Shown here: positions 4,221 through 21,921 of the stretch, one piece after another
Numbering within the stretch: the first letter of the stretch is position 1
Layout of the letters: each line of letters begins with the position of its first letter
Virus record (IMG/VR): IMGVR_UViG_3300010342_001192
Span: 1 to 24,830 of that record
Reading direction: 5' to 3' (one strand)
DNA length: 24,830 nt
From: a virus
Notes under the pieces: model-generated
Databases searched by the model: none
Seen by the model: only the letters and a program-made list of their open reading frames with translations
Told to the model about the DNA's origin: nothing
Program-made: the position numbers and the translations under genes

Positions 4221-4678
4221 AGTATTTTACTATATTTTTCTCGATTCTTTTTTAAATTTTTTAACCAATCCTGAATTTCTTCAGTATAAATTAATTTTGT
4301 ATCCCAGGACAAATGCCATTGTGGTCTATTCTCAATAGCTAAATCTGTTAGAATTTGAATAAGCTTTTTTCCATCATCTTCAGATAAACATTCAAATTTA
4401 ACTGCATTGCCTTCCAGTACTCGAACAACTTTAACATAGAAATGATTCCATTTAGATATGGAAATATCTTCGGGGTTTACCCCTGCACTCATAAGAAGTT
4501 CTACGGTCTTTGCTATATTTTCAATATGTAGATTTACCTTTTTATCTTCTTCTCCTGATTGATCCCATGTAGTGTCAAATTCGACTCCTTTTTGTTCAAG
4601 GGATTTTCGAATACCTATCTGAAGAGCATCTTTTGGATCTTTTCCTCTTTCAAAATTAATATTTTCTCTAACTAACAT
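4217..4678 (-). CDS. Hypothetical protein carrying the FxRGxDP..IG tag (long class, MLVRE-NINFERGKDPKDALQIG)
   Basis: 153 aa ORF coupled on both sides (TAATG at 4678, ATGA at 4217-4220); tag at 4613-4654. Confidence 0.8.
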   Translation of the reverse strand: MLVRENINFERGKDPKDALQIGIRKSLEQKGVEFDTTWDQSGEEDKKVNLHIENIAKTVELLMSAGVNPEDISISKWNHFYVKVVRVLEGNAVKFECLSEDDGKKLIQILTDLAIENRPQWHLSWDTKLIYTEEIQDWLKNLKKNREKYSKIL

Positions 4679-5040
4679 TATTTAACTAATACTCCTATTG
4701 CTTTTTCATCATTGATATAAAAATCAATAACGCAGAAATCAAATCCATCTGCTTTACCAAATGAAACTGAAGGTTCTATTTTAAATTTGCTGGATTCAGA
4801 AATATACTGTTGAACTTGTTTTTTGATTTTCTCTTCCAATTCAAGTTTGTTTATTCTTGTCTCGAAGATAAGATCCTCAATTCCTACTCCAAAATTAAGA
4901 TCCCCTAAGACTTGTCCTTGTGTAGTTCCTAGAATCATTCTTATCTTTGAAATAATACTTTCTATCGGATCAGAATGTTCAAAAACCCCATAACGATAAT
5001 TTGGGTCCTCGGGGTTTCTGATGTATATTTCTTTAACCAT
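4678..5040 (-). CDS. Baseplate protein, GPW/gp25-like (120 aa)
   Basis: Motif SIISKIRMILGTTQGQVLGDLNFGVGIEDLIFE matches the gp25 pattern (T.kGE..g.p.FG..l..llFE); size and position upstream of gp6-like gene. Confidence 0.75.
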   Translation of the reverse strand: MVKEIYIRNPEDPNYRYGVFEHSDPIESIISKIRMILGTTQGQVLGDLNFGVGIEDLIFETRINKLELEEKIKKQVQQYISESSKFKIEPSVSFGKADGFDFCVIDFYINDEKAIGVLVK

Positions 5041-5045
5041 TCTAG

Positions 5046-5061
5046 TTTTTATTTATATATC
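5046..5061 (-). promoter_or_regulatory. T4-like late promoter GATATATAAATAAAAA
   Basis: Contains TATAAATA 9 nt upstream of the gp25-like ATG; identical 16-mer at 23285-23300 upstream of a structural gene. Confidence 0.7.
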
Positions 5062-5082
5062 TTTACCCTACGAAAAGACCAC

Positions 5083-5103
5083 AAAAAAAGCCCCGAAGGG
5101 GCT
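5083..5103 (-). terminator. Rho-independent terminator
   Basis: Minus strand AGCCCC-TTC-GGGGCT followed by a T run, just downstream of the 5125-5736 ORF. Confidence 0.8.
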
Positions 5104-5124
5104 GAGACAATAAAAAATCATATT

Positions 5125-5736
5125 TTATAAATTATTTGCCATAAAATGCTTCCCCTCATAAACCTGATGAATTTTTGAAGGAATATTGCTATTCTCCTTA
5201 AGATCTGCAAATTTCATCCCTACAAGTTTGTCCTGAAGATTAAGGCCTGGATTCTTCTTCTTAGCGTTATTGATATAAGCAGAATAATAAGGAATAAGCT
5301 TGTCATAATCGTTTTTGTCATAAAGGAGACGATTACTTTCTCCAATGCAAATATTATCGGTATCCTTATATCTTTGAACCGTAACAAATCCAGTTTCTGC
5401 AGGAAGCTGTTTACTCCATTTTTTGGAAAATTCGCCTTTTAGAATACCTTTAGAAAATAGGATCTTAAGAATGTCATGATGAATTTTTTCAGAGAAATTT
5501 TCCATATAAATGTCACCATCTTTGGAAATAACTCCTCTGATATTAGGACCTAAAGAAGAAATAGAAGCAGGGTTTTTAATGAGAGCCCATTTACCATCCC
5601 TTGCAATAATATCTTCAGATGAAATGGATGCTTGCTTTTCGCTTCTATCGGTTTCATCGAGGATGCCAAACATTCTTTCGGCTGCTTTATCAGCTACACC
5701 TTCTTGAATAACATCTATGACTTTTTTAGCTTTCAT
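5125..5736 (-). CDS. Hypothetical protein, possible virion-internal protein (203 aa)
   Basis: Monocistronic ORF flanked by a late-promoter-like motif and a terminator; N-terminus MKAKKVIDVIQE-G resembles a Glu-cleaved propeptide. Confidence 0.7.
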   Translation of the reverse strand: MKAKKVIDVIQEGVADKAAERMFGILDETDRSEKQASISSEDIIARDGKWALIKNPASISSLGPNIRGVISKDGDIYMENFSEKIHHDILKILFSKGILKGEFSKKWSKQLPAETGFVTVQRYKDTDNICIGESNRLLYDKNDYDKLIPYYSAYINNAKKKNPGLNLQDKLVGMKFADLKENSNIPSKIHQVYEGKHFMANNL

Positions 5737-5790
5737 GGAGTAAATGTACTAATTTTTTCCTTAGAAAAAAAATTTCCTAAGTTATTTTTA

Positions 5791-5798
5791 TATTTATC
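5791..5798 (-). promoter_or_regulatory. Late-promoter variant GATAAATA
   Basis: One mismatch to TATAAATA, immediately after the Hsp20 terminator; the same octamer occurs at 13542 and 21922. Confidence 0.4.
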
Positions 5799-5800
5799 AC

Positions 5801-5827
5801 AAAAAAAGAGCCATTAGGCTCTTTTTT
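5801..5827 (-). terminator. Rho-independent terminator after hsp20 (symmetrical)
   Basis: AAAAAAAGAGCC-ATTA-GGCTCTTTTTT inverted repeat abutting the hsp20 stop. Confidence 0.8.
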
Positions 5828-6236
5828 ATTGAATTGCTATTCTTTTTTGTGTTTTAGATTCTTGAGATTTAAATTTAATTTCCAAAATTCCATCTTGTAA
5901 TTTAGCTTCGACCGATTTAGAATCTATTCCAAATTTTCTCATTTTATAAGAGAATTTCTTTTCACCGATCCTTTTCTTTAGCTCCTCATTTTTGAGCTCC
6001 CCTTCTATAGTTATTCCCGTTGCATCAATATCTATTTGGATATCCTCTTTAGAAAAACCTGGGGCCTGGACAGTAATTATCATTTGCTTATTTTCTTCAT
6101 CGAAAAAATAATGAGCAGGCTCTGCGGAATAATCCCAGTCAATTTTTTTCAGCCAATTATTATTAAAAAAATCATTAAAGAAAAAATCATCAAATAGGCT
6201 AATGCCCTGATTTCTTAAAGCTAATTTATTTTCCAT
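5826..6236 (-). CDS. Small heat-shock protein, Hsp20/alpha-crystallin family (136 aa)
   Basis: FDDFFFNDFF N-terminus; alpha-crystallin signatures APGFSKEDIQIDID..GITIEGE and VEAKLQDGILEIKF; C-terminal I-x-I motif (KRIAIQ). Confidence 0.9.
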   Translation of the reverse strand: MENKLALRNQGISLFDDFFFNDFFNNNWLKKIDWDYSAEPAHYFFDEENKQMIITVQAPGFSKEDIQIDIDATGITIEGELKNEELKKRIGEKKFSYKMRKFGIDSKSVEAKLQDGILEIKFKSQESKTQKRIAIQ

Positions 6237-6291
6237 AATTTTATAATTTTAAGTTATTTTTAATTTTTCATACACATATTTTCAAAAAATA

Positions 6292-6375
6292 TGCCATTGA
6301 AAAAATATGACAAAATGGCAATAAATCAAAAAAATTTTGACAATTTGACAAAAGAATATATAAAGAAAATGTCAA
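6292..6375. promoter_or_regulatory. Array of TG(A/C)CA / TG(G/T)CA pentamers in the divergent hsp20-lysozyme intergenic region
   Basis: TGCCATT (6292-6298) is inverted with AATGGCA (6314-6320); TGACA at 6308, 6338 and 6346; TTGACA (6345-6350) is inverted with TGTCAA (6370-6375). Confidence 0.35.
6354..6369 (+). promoter_or_regulatory. Late-promoter-like GAATATATAAAGAAAA
   Basis: Resembles the GATATATAAATAAAAA element; ends 9 nt before the lysozyme ATG. Confidence 0.35.
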
Positions 6376-6378
6376 TTA

Positions 6379-7197
6379 ATGATTATTTACGAGTCTGTAT
6401 ATCCTTTTTTAAATGAAGAGTTTCTAGCATCCGAGATTCTAAATGAAAAATTCGACATCAATAGTATAAAAAATGTTGCTAAGAAAGCTGCTATTCTTGC
6501 ATATATGTTTCTAATGACAGCTTCTAATAAAGGATATAAGGATTTACCCAGCAAAGAAGAAGTTAAGAATTCCAAACCCCTTATCTATTTAGCAAATCAA
6601 GATCATATTTCAAAAAAAGAGGTGGATGAGGAATTCAATAAATTATTCAAAAAATATTTTTATCCTTGGAGTGAGCCTCGATTAAATTATGATATTCTCC
6701 AAGATCCATTTCAATTATCTACAAGTCCTGAAGGAATGGAATTTATTAAAGAACATGAAAAATTAAAGCTAGAAGCTTATGAAATTGGGGATGGAATGGT
6801 TACCATTGGATATGGGCATGCCGAACCAATCCAAACTTCCAGGTTTAAAAAAGGAGATAAAATTACCATAGAGGAAGCGAACAAACTTTTTATGGAAGAT
6901 CTTAAAAAAGCAGAAGATGGGTTAAGAAGATTATTTACTATGTGGAATGACCAAGGAATAAATGTTATGATTTCCCAGCACATGTGGGATTCCATGGTTT
7001 CTATGGCTTATAATATGGGGGTTGGCGGATTAAGATCCACAGATTTTGTTTTATCTCTTAAAGATCAAAATTATATAGAAGCTGCAGATAGCATATTATC
7101 TTCTGGAGTTAAAAAAGCGGATAAATTTCCGGGATTAATAAATAGAAGAGAAGCAGAAAAAGAGTTATTTCTTAAAAATCTTTTACCAATAACTTAG
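6379..7197 (+). CDS. GH24 (phage lysozyme) muramidase with about 110 aa N-terminal extension
   Basis: HEKLKLEAYEIGDGMVTIGYGH catalytic region, MVSMAYNMGVGG and GLINRREAEKELF C-terminal motif of GH24 lysozymes. Confidence 0.85.
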   Translation: MIIYESVYPFLNEEFLASEILNEKFDINSIKNVAKKAAILAYMFLMTASNKGYKDLPSKEEVKNSKPLIYLANQDHISKKEVDEEFNKLFKKYFYPWSEPRLNYDILQDPFQLSTSPEGMEFIKEHEKLKLEAYEIGDGMVTIGYGHAEPIQTSRFKKGDKITIEEANKLFMEDLKKAEDGLRRLFTMWNDQGINVMISQHMWDSMVSMAYNMGVGGLRSTDFVLSLKDQNYIEAADSILSSGVKKADKFPGLINRREAEKELFLKNLLPIT

Positions 7198-7475
7198 ATC
7201 CATTCCCCTTCAAGACTAGGATCCTGGGCATCCAAAGCCATATCTCTGGTGACCTGAATTCTGTTATAATAAGGGTCGTTAATGCAGCAATCCCCATGAA
7301 GTAATTCTGTTTTTGAATCTCCTATTTCATCAATAATAGATGTAACCCTTTTAAATTCTTCTCCAGTAAGAGGAACTCCATTCTCATCAGTGGGTGTTCC
7401 GCAATGACCGCATCGATAAATTTTAATACCAATGCCCATAGCTTTTAGTGGATCCTGTCCTCTTTCAAAATTCAT
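7194..7475 (-). CDS. Tagged small protein (short class) with Cys cluster, possible metal binder (93 aa)
   Basis: MNFERGQDPLKAMGIG; CGHC and a distal GDCC. Confidence 0.75.
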   Translation of the reverse strand: MNFERGQDPLKAMGIGIKIYRCGHCGTPTDENGVPLTGEEFKRVTSIIDEIGDSKTELLHGDCCINDPYYNRIQVTRDMALDAQDPSLEGEWI

Positions 7476-7749
7476 TGTTTATCGGATAAATAAAATCTGA
7501 AAAATCCTCGGGTTTCTCTTCTCCTGGGAATTTTATTTTAAAATAAAGCCCTTCCCTATCCATGGTAACCTCTATCTTTAATTCTAATCCTACCTCTTCA
7601 TTGAAGGAACGCATAATTCTTTCTCTCACCGATGGATAAATCATTACAGTTCTATTTTCATCGACGAGTTTTAGAAGAACCTCGGATGCTTTTTTTCTGA
7701 TCCCTATCCCCATTATTTTTTTCGGATTCTGTCCTCTTTCAAAATTCAT
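7465..7749 (-). CDS. Tagged small protein (short class, 94 aa)
   Basis: MNFERGQNPKKIMGIG; ATGA coupling upstream; its stop lies inside the next gene's tag. Confidence 0.75.
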   Translation of the reverse strand: MNFERGQNPKKIMGIGIRKKASEVLLKLVDENRTVMIYPSVRERIMRSFNEEVGLELKIEVTMDREGLYFKIKFPGEEKPEDFSDFIYPINNEF

Positions 7750-8111
7750 CTTATGAAATATTTTTTGCCTTCATATAAAACATAAGAGCCAAATATTTCT
7801 GAAAAACGAATGGATTCTACCCCTTTAATAATTCCATCCGTAATAATAAATTTTCCTTTATCCGTTTCATTTATAATTTTTCCCACTCCATAATATTCTT
7901 TTAAAAAAGGAGTTAATCCCTTGGAATTTATAAATTCGAGAATCTTTTTAGCAGTTTTCTCTGCAAAAATTGTTTCTTCAAAATATCCTTCCCCGTCACC
8001 ATCCAAATTTACACAAGGTATAAAATGATAAACCCCAGAGATTTCAATAGGATTTTGACTTCTCCCTATTCCAATTCGATCAAATATTTCTCCTTCTCTT
8101 GTAAATTTCAT
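7746..8111 (-). CDS. Small protein with degenerate tag (121 aa)
   Basis: MKFTREGEIFDRIGIG keeps F, R and IG at tag spacing. Confidence 0.7.
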   Translation of the reverse strand: MKFTREGEIFDRIGIGRSQNPIEISGVYHFIPCVNLDGDGEGYFEETIFAEKTAKKILEFINSKGLTPFLKEYYGVGKIINETDKGKFIITDGIIKGVESIRFSEIFGSYVLYEGKKYFIR

Positions 8112-8117
8112 CGTATT

Positions 8118-8183
8118 TTAAAATCTATTTGAATTGATTCGATACTTTTCTTTACAGTAAACATTACCTCTTTCGAAATTCAT
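8118..8183 (-). pseudogene. 21-codon minigene or relic of a tagged gene (MNFERGNVYCKEKYRINSNRF*)
   Basis: Hand translation; ATGA-coupled to the upstream stop at 8180-8183, ends 6 nt before the next ATG; holds only the first half of the tag. Confidence 0.55.
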
Positions 8184-8539
8184 TTTGGTATTTTAAATGT
8201 AAATTCCTGTGGCTTAATATCATCACTCCAAATCTGAGCCATTATTCTAGGATAATAAATGTATTTTAAATATTTCCCTTTATATTGAGAAAGATCTTCA
8301 ACCATTTCTTGTCCTTTGATAACAACTTTAAAAAGATCCGAGCTAAGTTCCCCATCCTCTATCATTTGTAGCATATCTATAACTTCTTTTGGGTCTTCGA
8401 TAAATTGTGTTCGCTGATGTGTTCGCCAAATATAATCGTCGAACCTACTTATCTTAATAAGTGATTCAATGTACAAGGCTTTTGATATTTCCCCTATATT
8501 TAGGGATTTCTTAGGATCCAATCTTCTTTCAAAGTCCAT
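8180..8539 (-). CDS. Tagged small protein (short class, 119 aa; start reassigned from 8617 to 8539)
   Basis: MDFERRLDPKKSLNIG begins at Met27 of the track ORF; the longer start would overlap the upstream gene by 89 nt. Confidence 0.75.
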   Translation of the reverse strand: MDFERRLDPKKSLNIGEISKALYIESLIKISRFDDYIWRTHQRTQFIEDPKEVIDMLQMIEDGELSSDLFKVVIKGQEMVEDLSQYKGKYLKYIYYPRIMAQIWSDDIKPQEFTFKIPK

Positions 8540-9029
8540 GATACTTATTATAATAATCCAAAAGTAATTGCTTAACCTCCGGATTTGGTCGATTTTCATG
8601 CATATATCTCGAAGCAAGATTAATATAGGCCCCGAAATTTGTAGCTCTCATAGGTCTTTTTTCATCACCTCTCTCTACATATTGTCCTTTTAATTCCGAA
8701 GTTCCATGATCCAAAATAAACGTCTCCTCCGGAAATAAATTAGGAATGGTTAAAAGAGCTTTTACAGCTGCTACATTTCCTTCTGATACAGAATCCCATA
8801 GATAATCTGGATCCGAGAAATCAATTTTTTCACCATTAACCCATTTTTTCCCATTTAAACTAATAAGATATGGAAAAACAATATCCTTTTTTCTTCTCAA
8901 TGCCCATGTCCAGACTTCAAAAATATCATCATAAGAAAAATCCCTGGAATGACTCATCCAGTTTTTAATCTTAGGGCCTAACCCTATTCCTAATGCTTGT
9001 TTAGGATCTGCTCCTCTGACAAAATTCAT
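8529..9029 (-). CDS. Tagged protein (short class, 166 aa), possibly helical/ankyrin-like core
   Basis: MNFVRGADPKQALGIG; LWDSVSEGNVAAVKALL resembles one ankyrin-like unit. Confidence 0.75.
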   Translation of the reverse strand: MNFVRGADPKQALGIGLGPKIKNWMSHSRDFSYDDIFEVWTWALRRKKDIVFPYLISLNGKKWVNGEKIDFSDPDYLWDSVSEGNVAAVKALLTIPNLFPEETFILDHGTSELKGQYVERGDEKRPMRATNFGAYINLASRYMHENRPNPEVKQLLLDYYNKYHGL

Positions 9030-9325
9030 AATACTCCGTCTTTTTTAAGCATTTCAACAACATCTGGGATAGAAGCACCGCCATAATTAAACATGCCTAA
9101 ATCGTAAGATATAGAATATTCCTGCCCCATTTCAATTAACTTTATATAACTACCGTTAACCGAACTTGACCAACAAAAAATTATTTCTGGATTATTTGGA
9201 TAAGGTGATGAACTTGTTAAATCAAGTTTAATTCTTTTTGCTAATAATCCTACCATCTGGAGAGCATATTCTCTTCGTCCTATGCTCATAGCTTCTTTGG
9301 GGGCTTTTCCTCTTTTAAATTCCAT
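9026..9325 (-). CDS. Tagged small protein (short class, 99 aa; start reassigned from 9340 to 9325)
   Basis: MEFKRGKAPKEAMSIG follows a TAA-A-ATG junction with the upstream gene. Confidence 0.75.
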   Translation of the reverse strand: MEFKRGKAPKEAMSIGRREYALQMVGLLAKRIKLDLTSSSPYPNNPEIIFCWSSSVNGSYIKLIEMGQEYSISYDLGMFNYGGASIPDVVEMLKKDGVL

Positions 9326-9326
9326 T

Positions 9327-9641
9327 TTAGATTTTATCATTAATTTCCCAATCTCCGTTCTCGTTCATAGATGAAATAAATTCTTCCTCACCTATACGGC
9401 ACTTAATAAAGGTATGAGGCTTAAAATCAAAAGGATCATAAATTAATCTAGGATGACCAATACAAATAGCAACTATTGGTTCTCCCTTTCTCTGCTTTTC
9501 CTGAAGAGGATAAAATTCTGGACAAGATTTTCTCAAGAGAAATTGAACTATGAAAGATCTCCCTTCTCCAGGTATACGGCCATTATGATTTAGACCAATA
9601 TCCAAAGATCTTTTAGGATCAATTCCTCTTTCGAAGTTCAT
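9327..9641 (-). CDS. Tagged small protein (short class, 104 aa), first gene of the short-class cluster
   Basis: MNFERGIDPKRSLDIG; preceded by an intergenic TATATTTGC. Confidence 0.75.
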   Translation of the reverse strand: MNFERGIDPKRSLDIGLNHNGRIPGEGRSFIVQFLLRKSCPEFYPLQEKQRKGEPIVAICIGHPRLIYDPFDFKPHTFIKCRIGEEEFISSMNENGDWEINDKI

Positions 9642-9654
9642 TTTAATCTTTTTT

Positions 9655-9663
9655 GCAAATATA
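9655..9663 (-). promoter_or_regulatory. Bacteroidota-type primary-sigma -7 element (TAnnTTTG)
   Basis: TATATTTGC in the 50-nt intergenic gap, 13 nt upstream of the 9641 ATG; only a TTTA-like -33 candidate is visible. Confidence 0.5.
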
Positions 9664-9691
9664 CAAAAAAGAATCTAAAGTAAAAAATATT

Positions 9692-10285
9692 TTAACGATT
9701 TTTTTGATTGGCGGACTCGCTTGTTAAAGAAGCCATTTGCCATTTCCTTTGGTCAAGATATTTTGGGTTTCTTGAACCATATCCATAAGGAACATTTTTT
9801 GTTTTTAATAAAGGCGATTTTATATGTTCTTTTCCCATTTCGAGTTCGGATCTTTCTTCACTTCCTTCATATTCAGCAACGGGGATTAATCTAGATGTAT
9901 AATTATCGTCTTGTTTCCATGAATTTTTATCAATGACTTCTACTTCCCAACCTATCATATCTTCTCCTAATTTATCAGAAAGAAGATCTATAGCTTCGAA
10001 GAAAGTTTCCCTATCTGGATATTTCCAAAAACTTATTAATTTTTTATCGGTCCATAGTCTTCCAGATAATGTATTTCTGGTTCCTTCAGGATGGGTTTCC
10101 CCGGCTGGGCCAATATGAAAGATTCCATCTTCATACCAAAAAGCATGAGCATCTTCATCGCTAAAATGAGGGGATTTAAAAATATCATTTTCCAAAGGCT
10201 CTCCATACTTATTATAAGTAAGATGAGGCATGGAAATTTCATCAGGACTTTCAAATATTTTTAACGATTCTTTAACTATTTTCAT
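9692..10285 (-). CDS. Hypothetical protein with MKIVKES leader but no tag (197 aa)
   Basis: Starts MKIVKESLKIFESPDE, sharing the long-class prefix; ATGA-coupled. Confidence 0.75.
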   Translation of the reverse strand: MKIVKESLKIFESPDEISMPHLTYNKYGEPLENDIFKSPHFSDEDAHAFWYEDGIFHIGPAGETHPEGTRNTLSGRLWTDKKLISFWKYPDRETFFEAIDLLSDKLGEDMIGWEVEVIDKNSWKQDDNYTSRLIPVAEYEGSEERSELEMGKEHIKSPLLKTKNVPYGYGSRNPKYLDQRKWQMASLTSESANQKNR

Positions 10286-11529
10286 ATCTCATCTAATCTA
10301 TTTGAAAGGGAATCATTAAAAACCTCAGAGGTTATATCTCCATTATAACTATATTGAGGAGGATAATATTTTATCTTATAATCACTATCGTATAATGCTA
10401 AGCAGCCAAATAATTTTTCAATACCATTTAGAGAAATTGGTGCATAAAAATGGGAATAATTATTTGGTTTTTCCACCCATTTTATTTCTTCATCATTAAT
10501 ATCAAAATGCTTTTTAATAGCATTTTTCAAATCTTTAAAAGCTTCATCCTGATCTGCCATTTCTTGGGAATCTGTCCAAGCAAATCTAATAGCATCATGA
10601 AGATCTTCATACTCATCATTTGATTCTATTTCATCAAATAGTTCTTCAAGATTATTTGCTGTTTCTGGATCCCCGCCTCTTTCGATAAATTTTTCTTTAA
10701 GATCGTCTAAAGCAGGTATTTTTCCTTTTGCCAAAAGCCTTTTAAGAAACCAAGTCATTTCAGTAATATCGCCGAAATTAACGCTATCATATTCAAAGTA
10801 CTCTTCAACATTTTCCCCCGATAAAACAGCTTCAACGAAATCTTTACTTAAATTCCTTGTATCTGTATCAAATAAATCTGAGAAACTTTGCCATCCATCA
10901 AATGAAAGAAAGTATTTCCCATTTTTAAATTCATATTGAATTTCATCACTAGGAAGCTTAACATAAGGAATCCATTGAATACCCCATTTCTTTAATTCAT
11001 AAAAGTCATTTTCATCAAGACTATTATTATATTCTGGATTTTTAATCAGAAACTCAATCCATTGTTTCCTTGTTTCGTGATCAAGTTCGGCATCTTCTTC
11101 TGTAAGTAAATAGGAGATCCACATGGCAGGACTATCACTAGTTCTTTCTCTTAAAAAATTAGATATTTTTTGTTCCAAACCAACATTCATTGCTTTCTTT
11201 GGGTCCAAACCTCTTTCGAAATTCTGAGCCTCCGACATGCTTCCGGAAGTATCCCCGCCAAAGCCAAGAAAAAGCTTATCTAAAAGTTCTTTCGATCCCA
11301 GATACTCTTTATGATTAACTAAAAATAAAAGCCATGATTCTTTTGTCCTATCGTCAAGATCTTTATCTTCTTGTATTTCCCATATCCAACCAGTTGGAGA
11401 GGACCAAGATGAATCGCCTTCAGACATTTTTTTTCGAGCATAATTTATAATTCTTGGGAAAATTCCAATATCGATGGCTTGTTTAGGATCTAAACCACGT
11501 TCAAAATTTATGGATTCTTTTACTATCAT
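10282..11529 (-). CDS. Double-tagged acidic protein with internal duplication (415 aa)
   Basis: Tags at 11464-11505 and 11179-11220, each followed by a similar helical unit (SSPTGWIWEIQEDKDLDDRTKESWLLFL / DSPAMWISYLLTEEDAELDHETRKQWIEFL). Confidence 0.8.
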   Translation of the reverse strand: MIVKESINFERGLDPKQAIDIGIFPRIINYARKKMSEGDSSWSSPTGWIWEIQEDKDLDDRTKESWLLFLVNHKEYLGSKELLDKLFLGFGGDTSGSMSEAQNFERGLDPKKAMNVGLEQKISNFLRERTSDSPAMWISYLLTEEDAELDHETRKQWIEFLIKNPEYNNSLDENDFYELKKWGIQWIPYVKLPSDEIQYEFKNGKYFLSFDGWQSFSDLFDTDTRNLSKDFVEAVLSGENVEEYFEYDSVNFGDITEMTWFLKRLLAKGKIPALDDLKEKFIERGGDPETANNLEELFDEIESNDEYEDLHDAIRFAWTDSQEMADQDEAFKDLKNAIKKHFDINDEEIKWVEKPNNYSHFYAPISLNGIEKLFGCLALYDSDYKIKYYPPQYSYNGDITSEVFNDSLSNRLDEI

Positions 11530-11978
11530 ACAACAATACGTCCGCCAACGGTACAGATCTTTTTAATTTCATCGACAGTAAATTTTTCCTTATTTCCTCG
11601 AATATAAAAATCCCCATCGACCTGTTTTGGACATCCTTCAAGATCCTCTATTTTATTATTATCTACGAAGAAATCTCCTTTAACAACTTTAGGAAGACCT
11701 TTCATAGACATTAAATTTTGATCTCTTATAATAACACTGCCATGACAAATACCGAAATCAACATATTCTGGTATTTCTTTAAGATCCCAATATCTTTGAG
11801 AAGGAATAACTAATTCCCTTACATCAATTGTCCAATCTGAATTGATTTTATATTTGGTATATTTGGTATATTTGTTTATCCATTCTTCGACTTTTCGTTT
11901 CCTTCCTAAATCTAAAGTTCGAGAAGGGTCTTCACTCCTCTCGAACTCATTAAGCCTTGGATAAAAAATATCCTTCAT
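11526..11978 (-). CDS. Tagged LRR-like/beta-solenoid protein (150 aa; start reassigned to 11978)
   Basis: MKDIFYPRLNE-FERSEDPSRTLDLG after a TAA-A-ATG junction; repeats SMKGLPKVVKGDFFVDNNKIEDLEGCPKQVDGDFY. Confidence 0.75.
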   Translation of the reverse strand: MKDIFYPRLNEFERSEDPSRTLDLGRKRKVEEWINKYTKYTKYKINSDWTIDVRELVIPSQRYWDLKEIPEYVDFGICHGSVIIRDQNLMSMKGLPKVVKGDFFVDNNKIEDLEGCPKQVDGDFYIRGNKEKFTVDEIKKICTVGGRIVV

Positions 11979-11979
11979 T

Positions 11980-13515
11980 TTAGAATATATCTTTATATTT
12001 TTCAATAAATCTATCTACGCCCTTCTGATATTTGTCTCTTCCCTCAACTTCTCCAAGTTCATCGTGGATATAAGGATGAAGGTCAATCATCATCTTAATA
12101 GCTCTGGTTGCAAGAGAACCATTGTCAAGACGGATAAGATAGGTTACAAAATTATCAAATTCTTCAGGAGTAATATCTCTTCCCCTGGTTGATGTACAAA
12201 CGAGAGATAGAAGAGCGTTAGCTTCTGACTGATCATATCCGGATCCAGCTTTCTTAGGCATACGAGCTTTTTCAGGATGGGCAAGAACCTCTTTAATATC
12301 TTCTTTTTTGAAGGATTCAAGAAGTCTTAGGAATGTTTGGAACTCTGTTGCAATATCCATACCAACGTCTGAACCAACTACGTTTGTTATATCCTGAATA
12401 GAAGGCTTATAACCTTCATCAGCAGCATCCTGCATTAGAAGAGCAATATTCTTAGAAGCTGCTTCCCATGAACGAGGGCTAGCAAAGATGCTCTTTTCTG
12501 GATCATCGTCAAGAGTATAGAAATATTCTTGGTTAAATTCTAGGAAGTCAAGTATTCTTTGGTCAACTTTATTCTGTGCCCATTCTTTCCAACCAGCAAA
12601 ATCAGGAATATAGTTAACCTGCGAGAATCTGTTTCCGAGAGCTGTTGAGAAGTTCTGAACACCTTCAGGGTCATCTCCTGCTCTGTTGGATGCTGAAACA
12701 ATCGTCCATTTAGAACCTAGAACTGCGTCCCCAATAATTCTTTCATCAATAAGTTTTAAGCAAGTATTTTGAACGGACCCGGATGCACGGGAAAGTTCAT
12801 CCAAGAATAAAATACCTCCTTCACCCATATTAGCTATGCCATCTCTTCTTTTATCTTCTTCTGCATCGCCGCTCTTAATATAAACAGGAAGCCAAGATTT
12901 AGGAATATCCCTAGCTTTTAATTCATCATCAACTTTATAAGTTGCTGGAAGTGACCAGTCATCTGGGGCCATTTTAGAAGTTTGGACATCGATCAATCTT
13001 CCTTTTGTATTCTGTGCAAGAACTGCTTTAACAATTGCGGTTTTTCCAATACCAGGAGCTCCCCAAATCATAAGAGGTTTCCCCTGTGGGTTCTTTAAAA
13101 CCATACGAATTCTTCTATATAATTCTTTCTTTCCTACATTAGGAACGTTTTTATCAGGGTGTTCAAGTTTTATTCTAGCTTCATTAATAGTTCCCTCTTT
13201 AAGATCCGGTCCTCTTTTCTGAATAACTTTTTCAGCGGTAAGGGATTTTAGTTCAGGGCTTAATTCAACATCACCCTGGGAAGCTACATAAGAAATAGAT
13301 TTTGGTAAAGCACCATCCTTATCTAATATCCCAATATTAACAGGAGCCATAGCTTCTGTAACAGGTTGCCCCTGGAAAATGAAGAAAAAAAGCTTTCCAA
13401 CTTTCTGGAAGAATTTTTTAATAGCTTGTCCTATTTTGCTGAAGATCGCTTCATTTAGTTCTCCTCTAGCAATCTGAAAATCCTGGAGAGATTCAAATAC
13501 TAATTGTTTTTTCAT
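11980..13515 (-). CDS. MoxR-type AAA+ ATPase with N-terminal extension (511 aa)
   Basis: Walker A IWGAPGIGKT, Walker B GILFLDE, sensor ASNR, PRSWE motif; linked to a vWA partner. Confidence 0.9.
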   Translation of the reverse strand: MKKQLVFESLQDFQIARGELNEAIFSKIGQAIKKFFQKVGKLFFFIFQGQPVTEAMAPVNIGILDKDGALPKSISYVASQGDVELSPELKSLTAEKVIQKRGPDLKEGTINEARIKLEHPDKNVPNVGKKELYRRIRMVLKNPQGKPLMIWGAPGIGKTAIVKAVLAQNTKGRLIDVQTSKMAPDDWSLPATYKVDDELKARDIPKSWLPVYIKSGDAEEDKRRDGIANMGEGGILFLDELSRASGSVQNTCLKLIDERIIGDAVLGSKWTIVSASNRAGDDPEGVQNFSTALGNRFSQVNYIPDFAGWKEWAQNKVDQRILDFLEFNQEYFYTLDDDPEKSIFASPRSWEAASKNIALLMQDAADEGYKPSIQDITNVVGSDVGMDIATEFQTFLRLLESFKKEDIKEVLAHPEKARMPKKAGSGYDQSEANALLSLVCTSTRGRDITPEEFDNFVTYLIRLDNGSLATRAIKMMIDLHPYIHDELGEVEGRDKYQKGVDRFIEKYKDIF

Positions 13516-13533
13516 TGCAGTTCTAGTTTTATT

Positions 13534-15168
13534 TTATATTTTATTTATCTTAGCTTTTATCTTATCAATTTCTTTATCCGATAATTCCTCGTGGATCTTT
13601 GGTTTTGACAAAATAATTTCAATCATCTTTAACCAATTCTCCTTTGCCTTTTCTGAAGTTCCTACCTTACTTATCTTAGAAATAAGCATTTGAAGTGTTT
13701 TCTTTACTTTTACTCTTGGGTCTTTTAAAAGCTCCTCAACAGCAGCAAAAGCTTGATTAGCAGCAGCTTCATAAATTATATAATTATCTTCATAGACAAT
13801 ATTATAATTTTTATCCAAAGATTCTTTTGCATCGGCAGGATTAACCCTGGGATCTTCCATTAATTTTTTTACGGCATCAACATTATTATTTTTTGCTGCT
13901 TGATATAATGCTTCATTATGATTATCAGCTGGATTTACTCTTTCATCTTTTAATAGTAATTCAATCACATCTGGATTACCTCCCATAGCAGCTGATGCAA
14001 TTATAGAATTTTTTCTAAAAGCTGGGTTTGCAGCAGGATCCGAAAGGAGGAGTCTAACAATATCTACATTTCCCTTCATAGCAGCTCTTGTTAAAATCCC
14101 ATTTTTATCTTCCATTTTTAAAGGAAAATTCTTTAATGATGGATATTTAGCTATTTCATTATTAACTTCTTCAATAAAATCCCCAAGAAGCTTCTCCCTT
14201 CCTATACCTATATTAGCTTTAGCATCCCCGCCTCGTGTAAAGCCTAAAGCTTCTCGGATCGGATTATTCTCCATCATTTTTCTAAGTCTTTTCTGAGAAA
14301 GTTCTTTCATATATGGAACTTCTTTTTTAACTCTAGGATCTGATAATAAAAGACTTACCATTTCCCTATCCCCATTATTTAAAGCCGCTGCTAGAGCCCA
14401 ATTATCTCTGCTTGTGGGATCTACTCTTTTATCTTTTAAGAGGAGTTTAACAATATCTACATATCCATTTTTTGCAGCTCTTCTAATGCAATAATTAGTT
14501 TCATCATTTCCATATCTTTTGCCATCTCGGGTTTGAGCTGCTGGATCTACAATAGGACTGGATAAAAGAGCTTTGGCAACTTCTAGATCTCCTCTTTCAC
14601 AAGCTTTTTGGATAGGGCCATCAGAATCTATATTTAAATTGGTTGCTCCGTTTTCAATAGCCCATAATAAAAGCTCCGGGGTCCAATGAGAATACGATAA
14701 AGAAAATGCTTTATTTGGTCCTAATTTTTTTATACCATCTATAGTTCTCTGAGGTTCATATCTCATAAAATCAATGAAAGTATATTCAGTTATCCATGAT
14801 TTAGGAGCATTCCAAAGATCATCTTCTCTTCCTAATAAATAAAATGCTTGAACCCATCCAGAAGCATAACTTTCCAAATTATTTGGATTAAAGGTTTTTA
14901 TTTTGTCCAATAATTCATTAAAAACTTGCATCATAGCAGGCCTGTTTTGATTCATTGAATAAAAACTAGCGATTTTTCGAGTATCAATATGATAGATCTT
15001 TTTTTCTGTAAAATCATTAAGTGATTTTGGTGCTTCTGATTTTAGAGCCCAAGAATGATCATGAGCTAAATCTTCCATCATCTCTGGAAAAAGCGCAGCC
15101 TTTCCAATAGCCATTCCTTCTTTAGGATCTATATTTCTAGTAAAAGATATAGCTTCCCTGACAATCAT
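13534..15168 (-). CDS. Double-tagged ankyrin-repeat protein (544 aa)
   Basis: About seven ankyrin units (e.g. CIRRAAKNGYVDIVKLLLKDKRVDP) in blocks of 3 and 4; tags at 15103-15144 and 14200-14241. Confidence 0.85.
   Translation of the reverse strand: MIVREAISFTRNIDPKEGMAIGKAALFPEMMEDLAHDHSWALKSEAPKSLNDFTEKKIYHIDTRKIASFYSMNQNRPAMMQVFNELLDKIKTFNPNNLESYASGWVQAFYLLGREDDLWNAPKSWITEYTFIDFMRYEPQRTIDGIKKLGPNKAFSLSYSHWTPELLLWAIENGATNLNIDSDGPIQKACERGDLEVAKALLSSPIVDPAAQTRDGKRYGNDETNYCIRRAAKNGYVDIVKLLLKDKRVDPTSRDNWALAAALNNGDREMVSLLLSDPRVKKEVPYMKELSQKRLRKMMENNPIREALGFTRGGDAKANIGIGREKLLGDFIEEVNNEIAKYPSLKNFPLKMEDKNGILTRAAMKGNVDIVRLLLSDPAANPAFRKNSIIASAAMGGNPDVIELLLKDERVNPADNHNEALYQAAKNNNVDAVKKLMEDPRVNPADAKESLDKNYNIVYEDNYIIYEAAANQAFAAVEELLKDPRVKVKKTLQMLISKISKVGTSEKAKENWLKMIEIILSKPKIHEELSDKEIDKIKAKINKI
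13542..13549 (-). promoter_or_regulatory. Late-promoter variant GATAAATA embedded in the end of the ankyrin gene
   Basis: GATAAATAAAA 26 nt upstream of the AAA ATG, followed by AAAACTAGAA as in the gp25 leader. Confidence 0.35.
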
Positions 15169-16943
15169 TAGCTAATATTAATTTGCTTGCCAAATGGTTG
15201 CTGCCATTGAGGATTATCATAAACCATCCAAATGAATTTATGAGCATAAGGTGGTTTTTTTGGATTGGGGGCTCCTCCATCTGTAAAGAATACGCAAAGA
15301 GAAACTCTATCTTTTAATTTATCATGTACCCAATCAAGGGCTTTTTGGAAGCTAGTCCCCCCACCCCCTCTAACATTTTTAGGGATATAGGGTTTTCCCA
15401 TTTTTTTAATGGTCTGAACACTTCCTTCGTCAACTCCATCATCAAAGAAAGCTACTGTAATTTTATTAACTCTTTTTGAGAAAATAATTTGGTTAATTTC
15501 ATTTAATATTTTTTCTAGAGCTTCCCTACCCATAGAACCAGAAACGTCGACTAATACTACAATATGTTCCATAGCATCCATCTTATGTTTCTCTCCATAA
15601 CGTAGAAATTCCCCGCTTAAGTGTTTTTTATTTCCAATTTTCTGATATGTTTCAGGGGATAGAGCAGTTGCAACATATCTTCTGAACATATTTTGCCAGT
15701 TAACATCTCCTCTATGTAATCTTGAAAGTGCTGTAACAAGAGCACCTCCTTTTCCAGTACCTCTTCCCTTTGATCCTTTTAAAGCACGATCGAGCATTTT
15801 TGCCCCCTCAACACGCCATTTATCTGTCGGACTTTCGTCTGGCCCCATTTCCCCTTCTCCATATCCGCTTGCTTTAGCAATTTTCTTTCCCATTTCTGGA
15901 GTAATAATACCTCCTGTTCCAGCAGGGTCATATTCCTCAGCTTGATCGAAACTTTCTTCGTATCCATCACTTCCGGATCCACCAACACCTTTATCTTCGC
16001 CTTCTCCTTCTTCTCCTTGTCCCTGTCCTTGGCCTTGCCCTTGCCCCTGACCTGAATCAAGAGGAATTAATTCATCTTTTTTATAACTTTCAAAAAGATA
16101 GGTGACTAAAAGACTTTCATTAAGAGGACCTACCTCATAAGTTCCATCAGGATTAACTGCAGTAACAACTCCTTTTTCCCCTGTAGCTTTAATCTTAACT
16201 TTACTACCTACTTGAAGAGGTTGGGGTTGACCTTTTCCACCGCCCTGCTGACCTTGACCCTGTCCTTGTCCTTGACCGCCACCTTGCTGATCTTGTCCCT
16301 GATTTTGCCCCTGATTATTCTTTTTAAATGGGTTAGGTGGCATTTTTGGAATAGTTTTCTTTAGATCATCATAAATCTGTTCAACGGGAACATTTAAATA
16401 TTTTTCATCATAAAGACCATAAATTTTTTCTACAAATTCCTTATTGAAGTCACTTAAAGTATCTACTATAATGGTATTAATTTCATAGTCCCCAGCAATA
16501 TTAAACAATGAAGCTGGTTTTCCTTCGGAAGTCATGACTGTTGCATTTCTAGATTTCATACGTTCCATGTGAAGGAGAACGCAGTGCATGATCTCATGAA
16601 TAATAACAAAAATCTTCTGCTCCCATGAAAGCTTATCAGCAAATAATGGATTTACAAATAATCTTGTTCCATCGGTTGCCATTGTAGGAACAATCCAAGT
16701 GTAGATTGGGGTAAATTTATGAACATAAGGGGCAAATAAAGGAGATTGAGAAACAATAGCTGTTTTAGCACTTTCCATTTCATTTTTAAGATGCCTCATG
16801 TCAATTTTGGTTCCATCTTTAGCGAAAACATATCTATAATCTTCGATCTTCGCTGATTTAGGAATATCCATTCCTTCTTTAGCTTCATACAAAAAATCGT
16901 TTATTTGAGGATAAAATCTTGGATTTAATAGTTTCATATTCAT
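15168..16943 (-). CDS. DUF2201-type metallopeptidase-like plus vWA domain protein, MoxR partner (591 aa)
   Basis: HEIMHCVLLH zinc motif, NIAGDYEIN, MIDAS VDVSGSM, GGGT and FFTDGG. Confidence 0.85.
   Translation of the reverse strand: MNMKLLNPRFYPQINDFLYEAKEGMDIPKSAKIEDYRYVFAKDGTKIDMRHLKNEMESAKTAIVSQSPLFAPYVHKFTPIYTWIVPTMATDGTRLFVNPLFADKLSWEQKIFVIIHEIMHCVLLHMERMKSRNATVMTSEGKPASLFNIAGDYEINTIIVDTLSDFNKEFVEKIYGLYDEKYLNVPVEQIYDDLKKTIPKMPPNPFKKNNQGQNQGQDQQGGGQGQGQGQGQQGGGKGQPQPLQVGSKVKIKATGEKGVVTAVNPDGTYEVGPLNESLLVTYLFESYKKDELIPLDSGQGQGQGQGQGQGEEGEGEDKGVGGSGSDGYEESFDQAEEYDPAGTGGIITPEMGKKIAKASGYGEGEMGPDESPTDKWRVEGAKMLDRALKGSKGRGTGKGGALVTALSRLHRGDVNWQNMFRRYVATALSPETYQKIGNKKHLSGEFLRYGEKHKMDAMEHIVVLVDVSGSMGREALEKILNEINQIIFSKRVNKITVAFFDDGVDEGSVQTIKKMGKPYIPKNVRGGGGTSFQKALDWVHDKLKDRVSLCVFFTDGGAPNPKKPPYAHKFIWMVYDNPQWQQPFGKQINIS
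16015..16318 (-). repeat. Two Gly-Gln low-complexity tracts flanking a KOW/SH3-like insert in the vWA protein
   Basis: NQGQNQGQDQQGGGQGQGQGQGQQGGG (~16229-16318) and SGQGQGQGQGQGQG (~16015-16053). Confidence 0.8.
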
Positions 16944-16951
16944 TTATTTTT

Positions 16952-18214
16952 TTAATTCCATACTGTTCCGAGGACTTTTATTTTCTTTCGGATCTCATCC
17001 TCCTTCCATTTTTTTGATCCCGGATAGCTTGAATAGATTGAAAGATCTCCTTTAACTTCTTTTGGAAACCCATCAAGTTTTGTAAAAATATTTTGAGCTA
17101 CATAAAAACCTCCATATATTATCTTAAATTTAATAAAATATGGAAAATTATTTATATTGCAATCAACTAAATTTAAGTCATCTAAAACATCGATGGTTCC
17201 ATCTTTATTTATCCTATATTCTACATACTTATCATCATTTGGATCTTCAGAAATACCACATTCTTTAAACCAATTTTTTATCTGAGCATGGTATCCTATA
17301 TCTAAAGAGGATTTTGGATTAATATTTCTGTGAAATTCCATATTCTCTTTTATTGGTACATCAACTATTTCTTGTGGTTCATCACCCCAAGCAGATCCTT
17401 TTACTCTACAGACCTTTCGTATATCTTTTTGAGAAAATAACCCTGGATTATTATGGCAAACATAATTTCCATCTACATGTCTTGGCCCATCCTCTAATGT
17501 CATTAATTTATTGTTAGAGCATTTAAAATTACCTTTTAGATTTTCAGTTCCTACAACCTTTTTGGGGCACCCCCGTAAAGTTTTTAATTGGTTATCAGAA
17601 ATATCAAATCCTCCGATAACAGTTCCAAATTGAATATATTCTGGAAGGACTTCTCCTATATTTCTTAATCGTATAACTAATTGAACCTCAGGAGCTGTAT
17701 TTATAATAAGATCTTTCGAAATAACAGTATCCTCTAATAGATCATGTTCATTTAACCATTTTTCAATTAATGCCCTTTTACCTATATTCATGGAAACCAT
17801 TGGATCCCCTCCTCTGTGAAATTCTTGAGCTTCATTCATACTTCTGGGAAGAAATTCAAATAATCCGTTCTTAAATTGTTTTGGCGTTCCTTTTACAAAT
17901 CCATGTCTTGGGCGAACATTATCATTTTTATTTGCCTTAAAATCTTCTAAATCCACAAAATATTTAAACCAGATAATCCATTCCTTAGAAGACGAATTAT
18001 CAAATTCTTCCGTCTGTAATATAACACCTATTGGTAAATCGGAAACCGGGAAATCGCCGTATGATATTTCATTATTAGTGTCCAGAGGAATATTTTTTAT
18101 AACTTTTAGCAAATCTCCCTCATGAAGATTATTCCATGAAGGCATCCCAATTTTCATGGAAGACTTTGGATCTATTCCCCTTTCAAAATTAATATGTTCC
18201 TTTACAATTTTCAT
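16952..18214 (-). CDS. Triple-tagged protein: unique domain plus two LRR-like solenoid modules (420 aa)
   Basis: Tags at 18146-18187, 17780-17821 and 17294-17335; repeats TLRGCPKKV.G.FKCSNNKLMTLEDGP and KLDGFPKEVKGDL. Confidence 0.8.
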   Translation of the reverse strand: MKIVKEHINFERGIDPKSSMKIGMPSWNNLHEGDLLKVIKNIPLDTNNEISYGDFPVSDLPIGVILQTEEFDNSSSKEWIIWFKYFVDLEDFKANKNDNVRPRHGFVKGTPKQFKNGLFEFLPRSMNEAQEFHRGGDPMVSMNIGKRALIEKWLNEHDLLEDTVISKDLIINTAPEVQLVIRLRNIGEVLPEYIQFGTVIGGFDISDNQLKTLRGCPKKVVGTENLKGNFKCSNNKLMTLEDGPRHVDGNYVCHNNPGLFSQKDIRKVCRVKGSAWGDEPQEIVDVPIKENMEFHRNINPKSSLDIGYHAQIKNWFKECGISEDPNDDKYVEYRINKDGTIDVLDDLNLVDCNINNFPYFIKFKIIYGGFYVAQNIFTKLDGFPKEVKGDLSIYSSYPGSKKWKEDEIRKKIKVLGTVWN

Positions 18215-18669
18215 TCGCTATCATCTGCTTGAATGTTTGGGGCAAAACAAACTTTTCTTATTTCAGCTTCGGTAAATTCTGCTTTATTTCCAAAACAATA
18301 AACACACTCACGGACCTCTTTTGGAAACCCCTTTAAATCTGTAATTTCATTCATTTGACAAGAAAAATATCCATTTACTTTTTTGGGGCATCCAACCAAG
18401 GAAACTATTCCGCAATCATCAATATCAAAAGAACCTGAAGAATTAAATCTAATATAATCAGGAAATCTTCCATTTGGAAATAATTCCGGTCTTTCAACTG
18501 CAATGACATCCAAATCCGTATCTATAGTAAAATCCGAATTAAGCTTATAATTTCTTACCCCGATATGAACCTCATCAAGCCAGCCCTGAATTAATTTAGC
18601 TTTTCCAATACCTATGGCTTCTTTAGGATCTAATCCCCTTTCAAAATTGATATTTTCCCTAACTATCAT
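18211..18669 (-). CDS. Tagged LRR-like solenoid protein (152 aa)
   Basis: MIVRE-NINFERGLDPKEAIGIG; SLVGCPKKVNGYFSCQMNEITDLKGFPKEV. Confidence 0.8.
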   Translation of the reverse strand: MIVRENINFERGLDPKEAIGIGKAKLIQGWLDEVHIGVRNYKLNSDFTIDTDLDVIAVERPELFPNGRFPDYIRFNSSGSFDIDDCGIVSLVGCPKKVNGYFSCQMNEITDLKGFPKEVRECVYCFGNKAEFTEAEIRKVCFAPNIQADDSE

Positions 18670-18935: not shown

Positions 18936-19040
18936 TTTTATAATTTATTTTTATTTCTATTTAAGATATATTCTTTCTTTCTCTCTTGGACACTCATTGT
19001 ATGAGCATTTTAGAGTTAGTTTTTTATTTCATGTTAAGAT

Positions 19041-21908: not shown

Positions 21909-21921
21909 ATCTATTTTATTT

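Follow-up and report, generated by a model that had tools for sequence, protein, structure and literature searches.

A recurrent 20-residue tag on diverse protein modules of a T4-like phage: a candidate cleavage junction and docking peptide

The tag and the genes that carry it

A 24,830-nt stretch of viral DNA from IMG/VR (record IMGVR_UViG_3300010342_001192; we will call this stretch the window) encodes a series of proteins that share a short peptide, F-x-R-G-x-D-P-K-x-x-[LMI]-x-I-G, which we will call the tag. Using six-frame scans, we found 16 clear copies of the tag in the window, and every one of them is on the minus strand and within an open reading frame (ORF) (Table 1). A 17th copy, which is degenerate yet in register, is found at the start of ORF 7746-8111 (MKFTREGEIFDRIGIG). 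There is also a truncated copy in a 21-codon ORF on the minus strand, at about 8118-8183, which begins with MNFERGNVYC (in full, MNFERGNVYCKEKYRINSNRF and then a stop). This ORF has an ATGA overlap with the stop codon of the upstream tagged gene, and it looks like a tagged cassette that has decayed. Altogether, the window contains 17 full copies and one truncated copy, spread over 14 ORFs, and our rescan together with the remnant ORF shows that the same count in the initial annotation of this DNA was correct.

When the copies in the window are aligned, F1, R3, and G14 are invariant and there are no indels, which agrees with the initial description of these three residues as always in register. 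A looser pattern, F.R...P[KR].....G, occurs 12 times in the window, versus a mean of 0.01 times in 200 shuffles. The codons vary synonymously: arginine is encoded by AGA, AGG, CGA, or CGT; proline by CCT, CCA, CCC, or CCG; and glycine by GGA, GGG, or GGT. Among pairs of identical residues from different copies of the tag, the codon is the same in only 51%. Because the codons at conserved residues vary synonymously, the sequences support selection on the tag at the protein level, and the earlier suggestion to this effect is borne out.

Table 1. Copies of the tag and selected genes in the window. Tag copies run from the initial F to the final G; aa, amino acids; LRR, leucine-rich repeat; a slash within a leader marks the putative cut.
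Feature	Position	Strand	Remarks
Tag copies 1-4	18645-18604, 18187-18146, 17821-17780, 17335-17294	minus	
Tag copies 5-8	15144-15103, 14241-14200, 11945-11904, 11505-11464	minus	copy at 11945-11904 is the weakest
Tag copies 9-12	11220-11179, 9635-9594, 9319-9278, 9023-8982	minus	
Tag copies 13-16	8533-8492, 7743-7702, 7469-7428, 4654-4613	minus	
Tagged gene, 153 aa	4217..4678	minus	long class; start overlaps stop of gp25-like gene; stop overlaps start of gp6-like baseplate gene
203-aa protein	5125-5736	minus	tag-like leader MKAKKVIDVIQE/G; no FERG core
Hsp20 small heat-shock protein	5826-6236	minus	
Short-class cluster	7194..9641	minus	seven tagged genes (104, 104, 166, 119, 121, 94, and 93 aa) and the 21-codon remnant, or eight ORFs
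197-aa protein	9692..10285	minus	leader MKIVKES/L; no FERG core
Two-tag protein, 415 aa	10282..11529	minus	tags begin at F10 and F105; second preceded by SMSE/AQN
Tagged gene with weakest copy	11526..11972	minus	FERSEDPSRTLDLG; LRR-like body (aligns with LRR-like family)
MoxR-type AAA+ ATPase	11980..13515	minus	Pfam AAA_5, 1.4e-8; phrog_1297, 5e-52
Two-module ankyrin protein, 544 aa	13534..15168	minus	Pfam Ank_2, 4e-31
DUF2201 metallopeptidase-like (HEIMH) and vWA (DVSGS MIDAS) protein	15168..16943	minus	PF13203, 4e-26; PF09967, 4e-16
Three-module polyprotein, 420 aa	16952..18214	minus	tags begin at F10, F132, and F294
Tagged gene, 152 aa	18211..18669	minus	long-class N-terminal tag MIVRENIN-FERGLDPKEAIGIG, then LRR-like solenoid body
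GIY-YIG homing-endonuclease-like gene	19041-19736	minus	adjoins neck gene
S1-domain protein	21963-23210	minus	at least three S1 repeats

Some of the tagged proteins have more than one copy. In the 420-aa polyprotein, the internal tags are preceded by SMNE/AQE and PIKE/NME, and the 544-aa ankyrin protein has an N-terminal tag (MIVREAIS-FTRN...) as well as an internal one (NPIREALG-FTRGGDAKANIGIG). The gene with the weakest copy of the tag probably starts at an ATG, and the TTG start that was listed for it is doubtful. The position of the 153-aa gene is kept in five relatives (L001, L051, L054, L038, and L020). Three proteins have a tag-like leader without the FERG core, namely the 203-aa and 197-aa proteins (Table 1) and the MoxR-type ATPase; homologs of the 197-aa protein begin with MIAKKIYES or MKLVCES.

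Most genes in the short-class cluster begin with M-[ND]-F-E-R-G and have no Phi-x-E-S upstream of the core (where Phi is a hydrophobic residue). Their bodies are unrelated, and one of them is a Cys-cluster protein; none of the short-class genes matched any family in Pfam or PHROG. Upstream of the cluster, at 9641-9692, we found ...TTTTGTATATTTGC..., which is of the TAtaTTTG type and corresponds to the Bacteroidota-type TAnnTTTG -7 element. This suggests a promoter for the host's polymerase and a host from the Bacteroidota.

To see how the tag relates to the bodies, we considered AlphaFold2 models of the 152-aa and 420-aa proteins. The LRR-like bodies are modeled with confidence (predicted local distance difference test, or pLDDT, of 85-98), and every tag is in a segment with pLDDT below 50-55 and forms at most one helical turn, at D-P-K-x-[AS]-M. 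In the 152-aa protein, the body is above 90, residues 1-11 of the tag are below 50, and residues 11-20 are at about 55. In the 420-aa protein, all three tags are in segments below 50 (residues 1-30, 120-141, and 280-306), and modules 2 and 3 are at 85-94. Searching PDB with the model of the 152-aa protein (using Foldseek) gave weak LRR matches alone, with E values above 1. Because the tags lie in low-confidence linkers beside confident bodies, they are not an element of a shared fold: as modeled, the tag is a conserved linear motif in the linkers between domains. The initial annotation had raised the prospect that the motif is the first structural element of one fold common to all carriers, and the models, with tags below 50-55 and bodies above 85-90, speak otherwise.

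Anatomy, distribution, and phage setting of the tag

We built a profile of 34 columns from the copies in the window and searched it against 1.84 billion protein clusters. We found 1,472 representative proteins at E <= 1e-3 and 421 at E <= 1e-10. Many proteins contain 3-10 matches, and the maximum was 12, in a protein of 1,511 aa. Tags were present in all 43 of the IMG/VR records that we searched; two of the fragments, of 133 kb and 46 kb, have 39 tags each, and a genome would have dozens to probably more than 100 copies. The system is far larger than was described at first: a polyprotein can have as many as 12 modules, and dozens of tags can be found on a fragment of a genome.

We defined the conserved positions from 521 internal copies, all non-redundant, and found that they form a unit of 20 residues: [LIV]-x-E-S-[LIV]-N-F-E-R-G-x-D-P-K-x-[AS]-[ML]-x-I-G. 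The 14-residue core in the initial annotation stands, but the tag extends six positions further upstream than was proposed. Position -6 is L, I, V, or M in 85% of copies; position -4 is Glu in 97%; position -3 is Ser in 74% and S, A, N, or G in 92%; position -2 is L, I, or V; and position -1 is N, D, S, or E, followed by the FERG core. Conservation ends sharply, with none before -6 and none after +14. The six upstream positions, [LIV]-x-E-S-[LIV]-[NDSE], are kept wherever polypeptide precedes the tag. The first tag in a protein is usually 8, 9, or 11 residues after the initial Met (as in MIVRENIN, MKIVKEHIN, or MKAKFIYENLD) or else at -2 (MNFERG).

The median spacing from tag to tag is 120 residues (5th to 95th percentile, 95-235), and the body behind each tag is about 100 residues. 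With three exceptions, every protein that we examined has a full body after its last tag. When we clustered 703 single-module bodies, we obtained about 260 BLAST families, 146 of which were singletons. The bodies include ankyrin, GNAT, and LRR-like types, so the tag is indeed carried by largely unrelated bodies, as first stated. In 59 polyproteins, Pfam recognizes just ankyrin and GNAT. The bodies are mostly acidic or neutral (median pI of 5.6).

We considered two other ways that the tag might separate modules. Ribosome skipping, as at 2A-like peptides, was rejected: N-terminal copies of the tag are as well conserved as internal ones. Self-cleavage at Asp-Pro was dropped, as there was no support for it past the dipeptide.

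Fused and separate forms of the same modules are both found. The two ankyrin modules that form one ORF in the window are encoded by two separate, overlapping genes in L095, L020, and L059. There, the second ankyrin gene begins with MIVRE[AS]LGF[TV]RGGD, so that an N-terminal MIVRE stands for the internal NPIRE. Since the same modules are fused or separate across relatives, the two states are interchangeable. Contigs from public RNA libraries cover the tag island, although contigs are no proof of transcription, strand, or expression level. Some contigs join one tag to another (4656/11482, 4657/18617, 7445/7732, and 11191/11477). At 11191/11477, the joint skips 285 nt in frame, and what is lost is precisely the 415-aa protein's first module. 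These joints are either strain variants that arose by recombination from tag to tag or assembly artifacts at shared words.

Nearly all hits of the tag are in viral contigs, from T4-like phages of roughly 400 kb in activated sludge and digesters. With a degenerate DNA pattern for the tag, we obtained about 150 matches among viral contigs but just one genuine match and one chance match in prokaryotic genomes (596 Gb). The genuine match is a 2.9-kb contig with two tags that was binned to an archaeal metagenome-assembled genome from a digester, and it is probably from a phage. The other match is in a Dehalococcoidia chromosome (L096:5178-5218, ...GTLFERGLDPKRRSQIGAHFTDAESI..., with core LFERGLDPKRRSQIG); the conserved flanks are absent and the protein is unrelated, so we judged it to be a chance match. 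The neighbors of the 152-aa tagged protein in the atlas are 98-100% viral. All of this supports a virus-restricted tag.

The initial annotation did not recognize the motif from any named family, and neither did our searches: the tag and its small carriers belong to no family in Pfam, PHROGs, or NCBIfam, and the best match in a profile search of PDB (E = 0.17) was unrelated. Neither a six-tag protein nor a 34-aa tag segment matched any phage record in GenBank, which is weak evidence of absence, as sensitivity for short motifs is limited. Nothing relevant to the motif or to phage polyproteins was found in the literature.

The window is AT-rich (about 32% GC) and is part of a T4-like myovirus. 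Its genes include gp6-like and gp25-like baseplate proteins, a sheath-like protein, a lysozyme, Hsp20, an S1-domain protein, and a GIY-YIG endonuclease, and a close homolog of ORF 19743-20477 carries the T4 gp13 neck family. The tagged genes are located in this block of neck, baseplate, and sheath genes. Relatives with conserved synteny and 40-100% protein identity are abundant in IMG/VR and in public metagenomes, and the phage family is known from many studies of wastewater, activated sludge, and digesters (at least 14 for sludge and digesters). A 133-kb relative is rated as 33% complete by CheckV, and orthologs of the window's genes are found on contigs of 376 kb and 405 kb; the phage's genome is therefore on the order of 400 kb.

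The word ATAAATAAAA resembles the T4 late promoter TATAAATA. It occurs at 5047-5056, 13539-13548, and 21919-21928 on the minus strand and at 23290-23299 on the plus strand, which is 10-25 nt 5' of the gp25-like gene, the ATPase gene, ORF 20481-21908, and ORF 23310-23930, respectively. Copies with one mismatch are found at 18949-18958 (minus strand), ahead of a small membrane ORF, the first in the long-class tag operon, and at 23930-23939 (plus strand), ahead of the sheath-like gene. This type of word is not enriched overall in the window (25 matches versus 23.8 expected).

Possible processing and docking roles

In phage T4, the prohead protease gp21 cuts after L/I-x-E (PMC9026906), and a capsid-targeting sequence (CTS) of 10 residues at the N-terminus, MKTYQEFIAE, sends unrelated proteins to the core of the prohead (PMC9026906, PMC8442874, PMC5694885). 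At the sequence level, positions -6 to -3 of the tag, with the consensus [LIV]-[NK]-E-S, match the gp21 rule. Also, tag-bearing relatives (G002, G008, and G015) have genes for both a prohead protease of the S77 type and a capsid protein of the gp23 family. The protease (PF03420/PF20034, or S77/S80) is fused to a long scaffold-like region and is followed by the gene for the Gp23 capsid protein (PF07068). A 376-kb contig encodes the S77 protease and gp23 as well as orthologs of the 152-aa tagged protein and the vWA protein.

The relatives' head proteins contain similar sites. Just past the protease domain, Phi-x-E-[SAGN] sites are kept in 37-40 of 40 homologs. The Gp23 capsid protein starts with MKQLNE/AQ and has a second LNE/A at residues 41-44, and the SMNE/AQE and SMSE/AQN that precede tags in the window echo its NEAQ. 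In one of the fusions of protease and scaffold (L090:768-3299), the scaffold-like region is about 650 residues long and has a repeated unit that contains W (...DWVGNNAKVTNAI..., ...EWNGQISHAVNAL...). Fusions of this type have over 3,300 homologs in public data.

Phi-x-E-S is absent from the short class, yet the Glu is kept in 97% of copies when polypeptide precedes the tag. Because Phi-x-E-S is dispensable for the core but is kept behind polypeptide, it behaves as one would expect of a cut site. Within the bodies, Phi-x-E-S occurs 43 times versus 72.7 expected (z = -3.5), and control patterns are not depleted. The analogy to T4 in the initial annotation thus fits the upstream edge of the tag and the relatives' S77 protease and gp23, but it does not extend to the core: the CTS has no counterpart to FERGxDPK, and the leaders are alike in layout only.

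Inside the tag island, there is also a pair of genes for a MoxR-type AAA+ ATPase and a metallopeptidase-vWA protein (Table 1; MIDAS is the metal-ion-dependent adhesion site). The HExxH and DxSxS motifs of the latter are intact. Between its two domains (at about residues 205-330), it has a low-complexity insert that is rich in G, Q, and E, with GQGQGQ... runs; its homologs are 456-690 aa long and vary in the length of this insert. The ATPase's N-terminus, MKKQLVFES-LQDF, resembles the upstream half of the tag, and Phi-x-E-S is kept at this position in L095, L099, and L098. Synteny between the pair and tags is kept in relatives with as little as 47% identity (L095 and L099), and in the 405-kb lineage (L098) the tags are variants that read ...D-M-G-I-G. 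A role for the pair as loader or processor stays viable as a candidate.

Homologs of the pair are also found in two lineages without FERG tags (L100 and L101). At L100:2958-14349, about 12 genes flank the pair, which is 29% identical to the window's. Many of these genes encode ankyrin proteins, and all of them begin with other shared leaders (MKNIKTYxESLxES, MKTYMKDFNEFS, or MKYVKVFE) and have no FERG motif. We regard this as a second tagging system, parallel to that of the FERG motif, and leader-tagged variable arrays thus recur in huge T4-like phages. In L101, a lysozyme-domain protein (13873-14667) begins with MKTFEEYISE, which closely resembles the T4 CTS.

Given the upstream edge of the tag and the relatives' head proteins, we tentatively favor a two-part role, although we would not yet call it probable: the tag would be a cleavable junction joined to a docking peptide that is retained on cargo packaged into the capsid. 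The first four positions (Phi-x-E, then S, A, or N) would be the site for a T4-type prohead protease. The cut would free short propeptides (MIVRE/... or MKAKFIYE/...) from single proteins, and it would divide polyproteins, with as many as 12 modules, into units of about 13 kDa. The remaining 16 residues would then form the new N-terminus, a common handle by which modules dock to one conserved partner. Genes of the short class begin directly with M-N-F-E-R-G, so their products would need no cut. The modules addressed by the tag would be small binders and enzymes (ankyrin, LRR-like, and GNAT types as well as hundreds of folds that are unknown), and together they would make up a library that evolves fast. 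The likeliest destination would be the prohead core, with packaging and then injection along with the DNA, as for T4's internal proteins and Alt. We are more doubtful about the fullest version of this proposal, in which over 100 domains per genome, made singly or as polyproteins, are loaded, cut by the protease, and attached by the 16-residue handle to a single hub, which would serve to retain them in the capsid, to eject them, or to let them act in the next host.

Several points weigh against a cleaved and packaged cargo. We infer the cleavage, the enzyme, the packaging into virions, and the identity of the partner. The genes for S77 protease and gp23 were seen in relatives and not in the window, and the ATPase and vWA pair within the island is a possible alternative processor. 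The depletion of Phi-x-E-S is weak if one representative per family is used (z = -1.9), and Phi-x-E alone is not depleted in the bodies (1,415 versus 1,349 expected). The T4 targeting peptide precedes the cut and is removed, whereas the tag's core follows the putative cut and would be retained, so the mechanism of T4 does not carry over as it stands. The short class, which is leaderless and seems to have a host-type promoter, may consist of early genes, and a role in the infected cell would explain it no less readily than one in the capsid. The MK-rich N-termini may partly reflect a bias in translation starts in an AT-rich genome. Finally, we know of no precedent for packaging over 100 species of cargo in one capsid.

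The tag might instead act in the infected cell, where it would tether the modules to a common hub, be it a complex of the host or a component of the phage factory; we consider this unlikely. The polyproteins, if cut at all, would then be cut by the DUF2201-vWA protein, with MoxR as the unfoldase or loader, and the vWA MIDAS could bind the Glu or Asp of the tag. The pair's location within the island, its synteny with tags to 47% identity (L095, L099), its intact HExxH and DxSxS motifs, and the half-tag that opens the ATPase itself would all fit, as would the short-class genes, which lack a cleavable leader and lie behind a TAtaTTTG-like sequence; and the L100 pair, with ankyrin arrays that have another leader on its flanks, suggests a recurring link between pair and array. 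But tagless DUF2201/MoxR pairs are common (in N4-like phages, in L101, and in control genomes from Deinococcus and Thermotoga), the tagged genes sit in structural operons, and the junction fits the rule for a Glu-specific serine protease. Zinc proteases typically prefer a hydrophobic residue at P1', which also weighs against DUF2201 as the processor. The pair was present in 3 of 22 tag-bearing fragments, all from the window's clade, but because these are fragments, this is weak evidence either way. Quite improbable, in our view, is that the tags are multivalent stickers, such that chains with many tags bind a reader with many sites, or each other, to build a proteinaceous body without any cleavage. 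This could be a compartment in the cell or, in the head, an inner body, with the variable bodies as its clients or as spacers. A single chain can have up to 12 tags, evenly spaced and in disordered linkers, and a genome fragment can have dozens, as one would expect from stickers; the W-containing repeats of the protease-scaffold fusion could provide repeated docking sites; and giant phages do carry large paralogous families of head proteins as well as inner bodies (PMC5694885, PMC9026906). However, many carriers have a single tag, and the same module may be fused or separate, which implies that valency is not critical. That Glu at -4 (97%) and Ser at -3 are found only behind polypeptide is a better fit to a cut site.

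Of the two remaining explanations, the first would give the peptide little function of its own. If the tag were a DNA-level recombination site that shuffles, deletes, and fuses cassettes, then the contigs that join tags (4656 to 11482, 4657 to 18617, and 11191 to 11477) and the fusion and fission of neighboring tagged genes would follow naturally. This is very improbable, as just 51% of identical-residue pairs share a codon, conservation tracks classes of amino acids (A/S and M/L/I), and the motif is kept in orthologs that are only 40-50% identical. Also, short joints in metagenome contigs are often assembly artifacts at shared words, and recombination between tags is more likely to be a by-product that aids diversification. 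We give almost no credence to the idea that the modules are ordinary paralogs from one diverged domain family with the motif as its first structural element. Module lengths are alike (median of 120 aa), and many bodies begin with an amphipathic helix behind the tag, but ankyrin, LRR-like, GNAT, and Cys-cluster bodies are all present, 703 bodies form about 260 families, the modeled tag is not packed on the body, and conservation stops at +14.

Comparison with known systems and implications

The closest known counterparts of the tag are the CTS and internal proteins of T4, along with the processed families of head proteins in giant phages. As in T4, unrelated proteins share a short N-terminal peptide whose Phi-x-E edge matches L/I-x-E, and the lineage is T4-like, with a gp23 capsid protein and S77 protease (in relatives) and with hypervariable loci. 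The leaders of the long class (MKAKFIYE/ and MIVRE/) are laid out like MKTYQEFIAE/. Unlike in T4, the tag is also found internally, with up to 12 per chain, which yields polyproteins. There are dozens to probably over 100 copies of the tag per genome, as compared to a handful in T4; the tagged bodies are not highly basic (median pI of 5.6); and the short class has no leader. Closer look-alikes of the CTS (MKTFEEYISE and MKNIKTY..ES) are found in huge-phage lineages that lack the FERG tag.

The giant phages phiKZ, 201phi2-1, and SPN3US are also huge and have expanded families of head proteins; for instance, family B of SPN3US has 20 members. A gp21-like protease cuts many of these phages' head proteins after the Glu of a three-residue motif (PMC5694885, PMC9026906). 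But the families in giant phages are true paralogs that share a fold, with neither a common 20-residue tag nor multi-module polyproteins, and their cleavage motif is S/A-x-E, where the tag has a hydrophobic residue before x-E.

Another comparison in the initial annotation was to the leaders of Photorhabdus virulence cassettes (PVC), which are extracellular contractile injection systems (eCIS). PVC and other eCIS payloads have a disordered N-terminal leader, loosely defined and about 50 residues long, on diverse proteins. The disordered signal and a nearby gene for an AAA+ ATPase are similar, but this analogy is a poor fit: the relatives carry gp23 and S77 protease, so this is a capsid-bearing phage, and the local ATPase is a single-ring MoxR type (AAA_5) that is paired with vWA, not a Pvc15-type ATPase. 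Also, the tag is sharply defined, has 20 residues, and is found internally as well.

Encapsulin cargo-loading peptides dock diverse cargo inside a shell with the HK97 fold, and they are usually C-terminal. Their consensus has S-L-x-I-G-like residues, similar to the [AS]-[ML]-x-I-G at the end of the tag; we mention this as a lead.

As in viral polyproteins, one ORF can encode several independent domains with a conserved junction peptide (12 tags in 1,511 aa, with a median spacing of 120), but the tag is far longer and better conserved than a protease site requires. Polyproteins with protease junctions are known mainly from RNA viruses and retroviruses, and we know of no tailed phage that encodes libraries of modular polyproteins. 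The novel parts of the system would be the retained core, the internal copies, the diversity of the bodies, and the number of copies. It is possible that the partner is something other than a head component, which would make the tag's function more novel.

Whatever the partner, the tag's profile picks out over 1,400 clusters of phage proteins that could not otherwise be annotated. The tagged proteins are probably binders or modifiers of host targets, which makes them candidates for anti-defense or host takeover. If our proposal is correct, then the idea of T4's internal proteins would no longer concern just a handful of them but would extend to an arsenal that is large, modular, and quick to evolve, which would be a phage counterpart to the arsenals of effectors that are tagged with secretion signals. 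It would also mean that tailed phages can use polyprotein processing, and this would be the first modular polyprotein system among them. A short, transferable, 20-residue peptide might then serve to package or dock foreign proteins in capsids. The question of what huge phages carry in their heads becomes directly testable, and because these phages are common in sludge and digesters, material should be obtainable.

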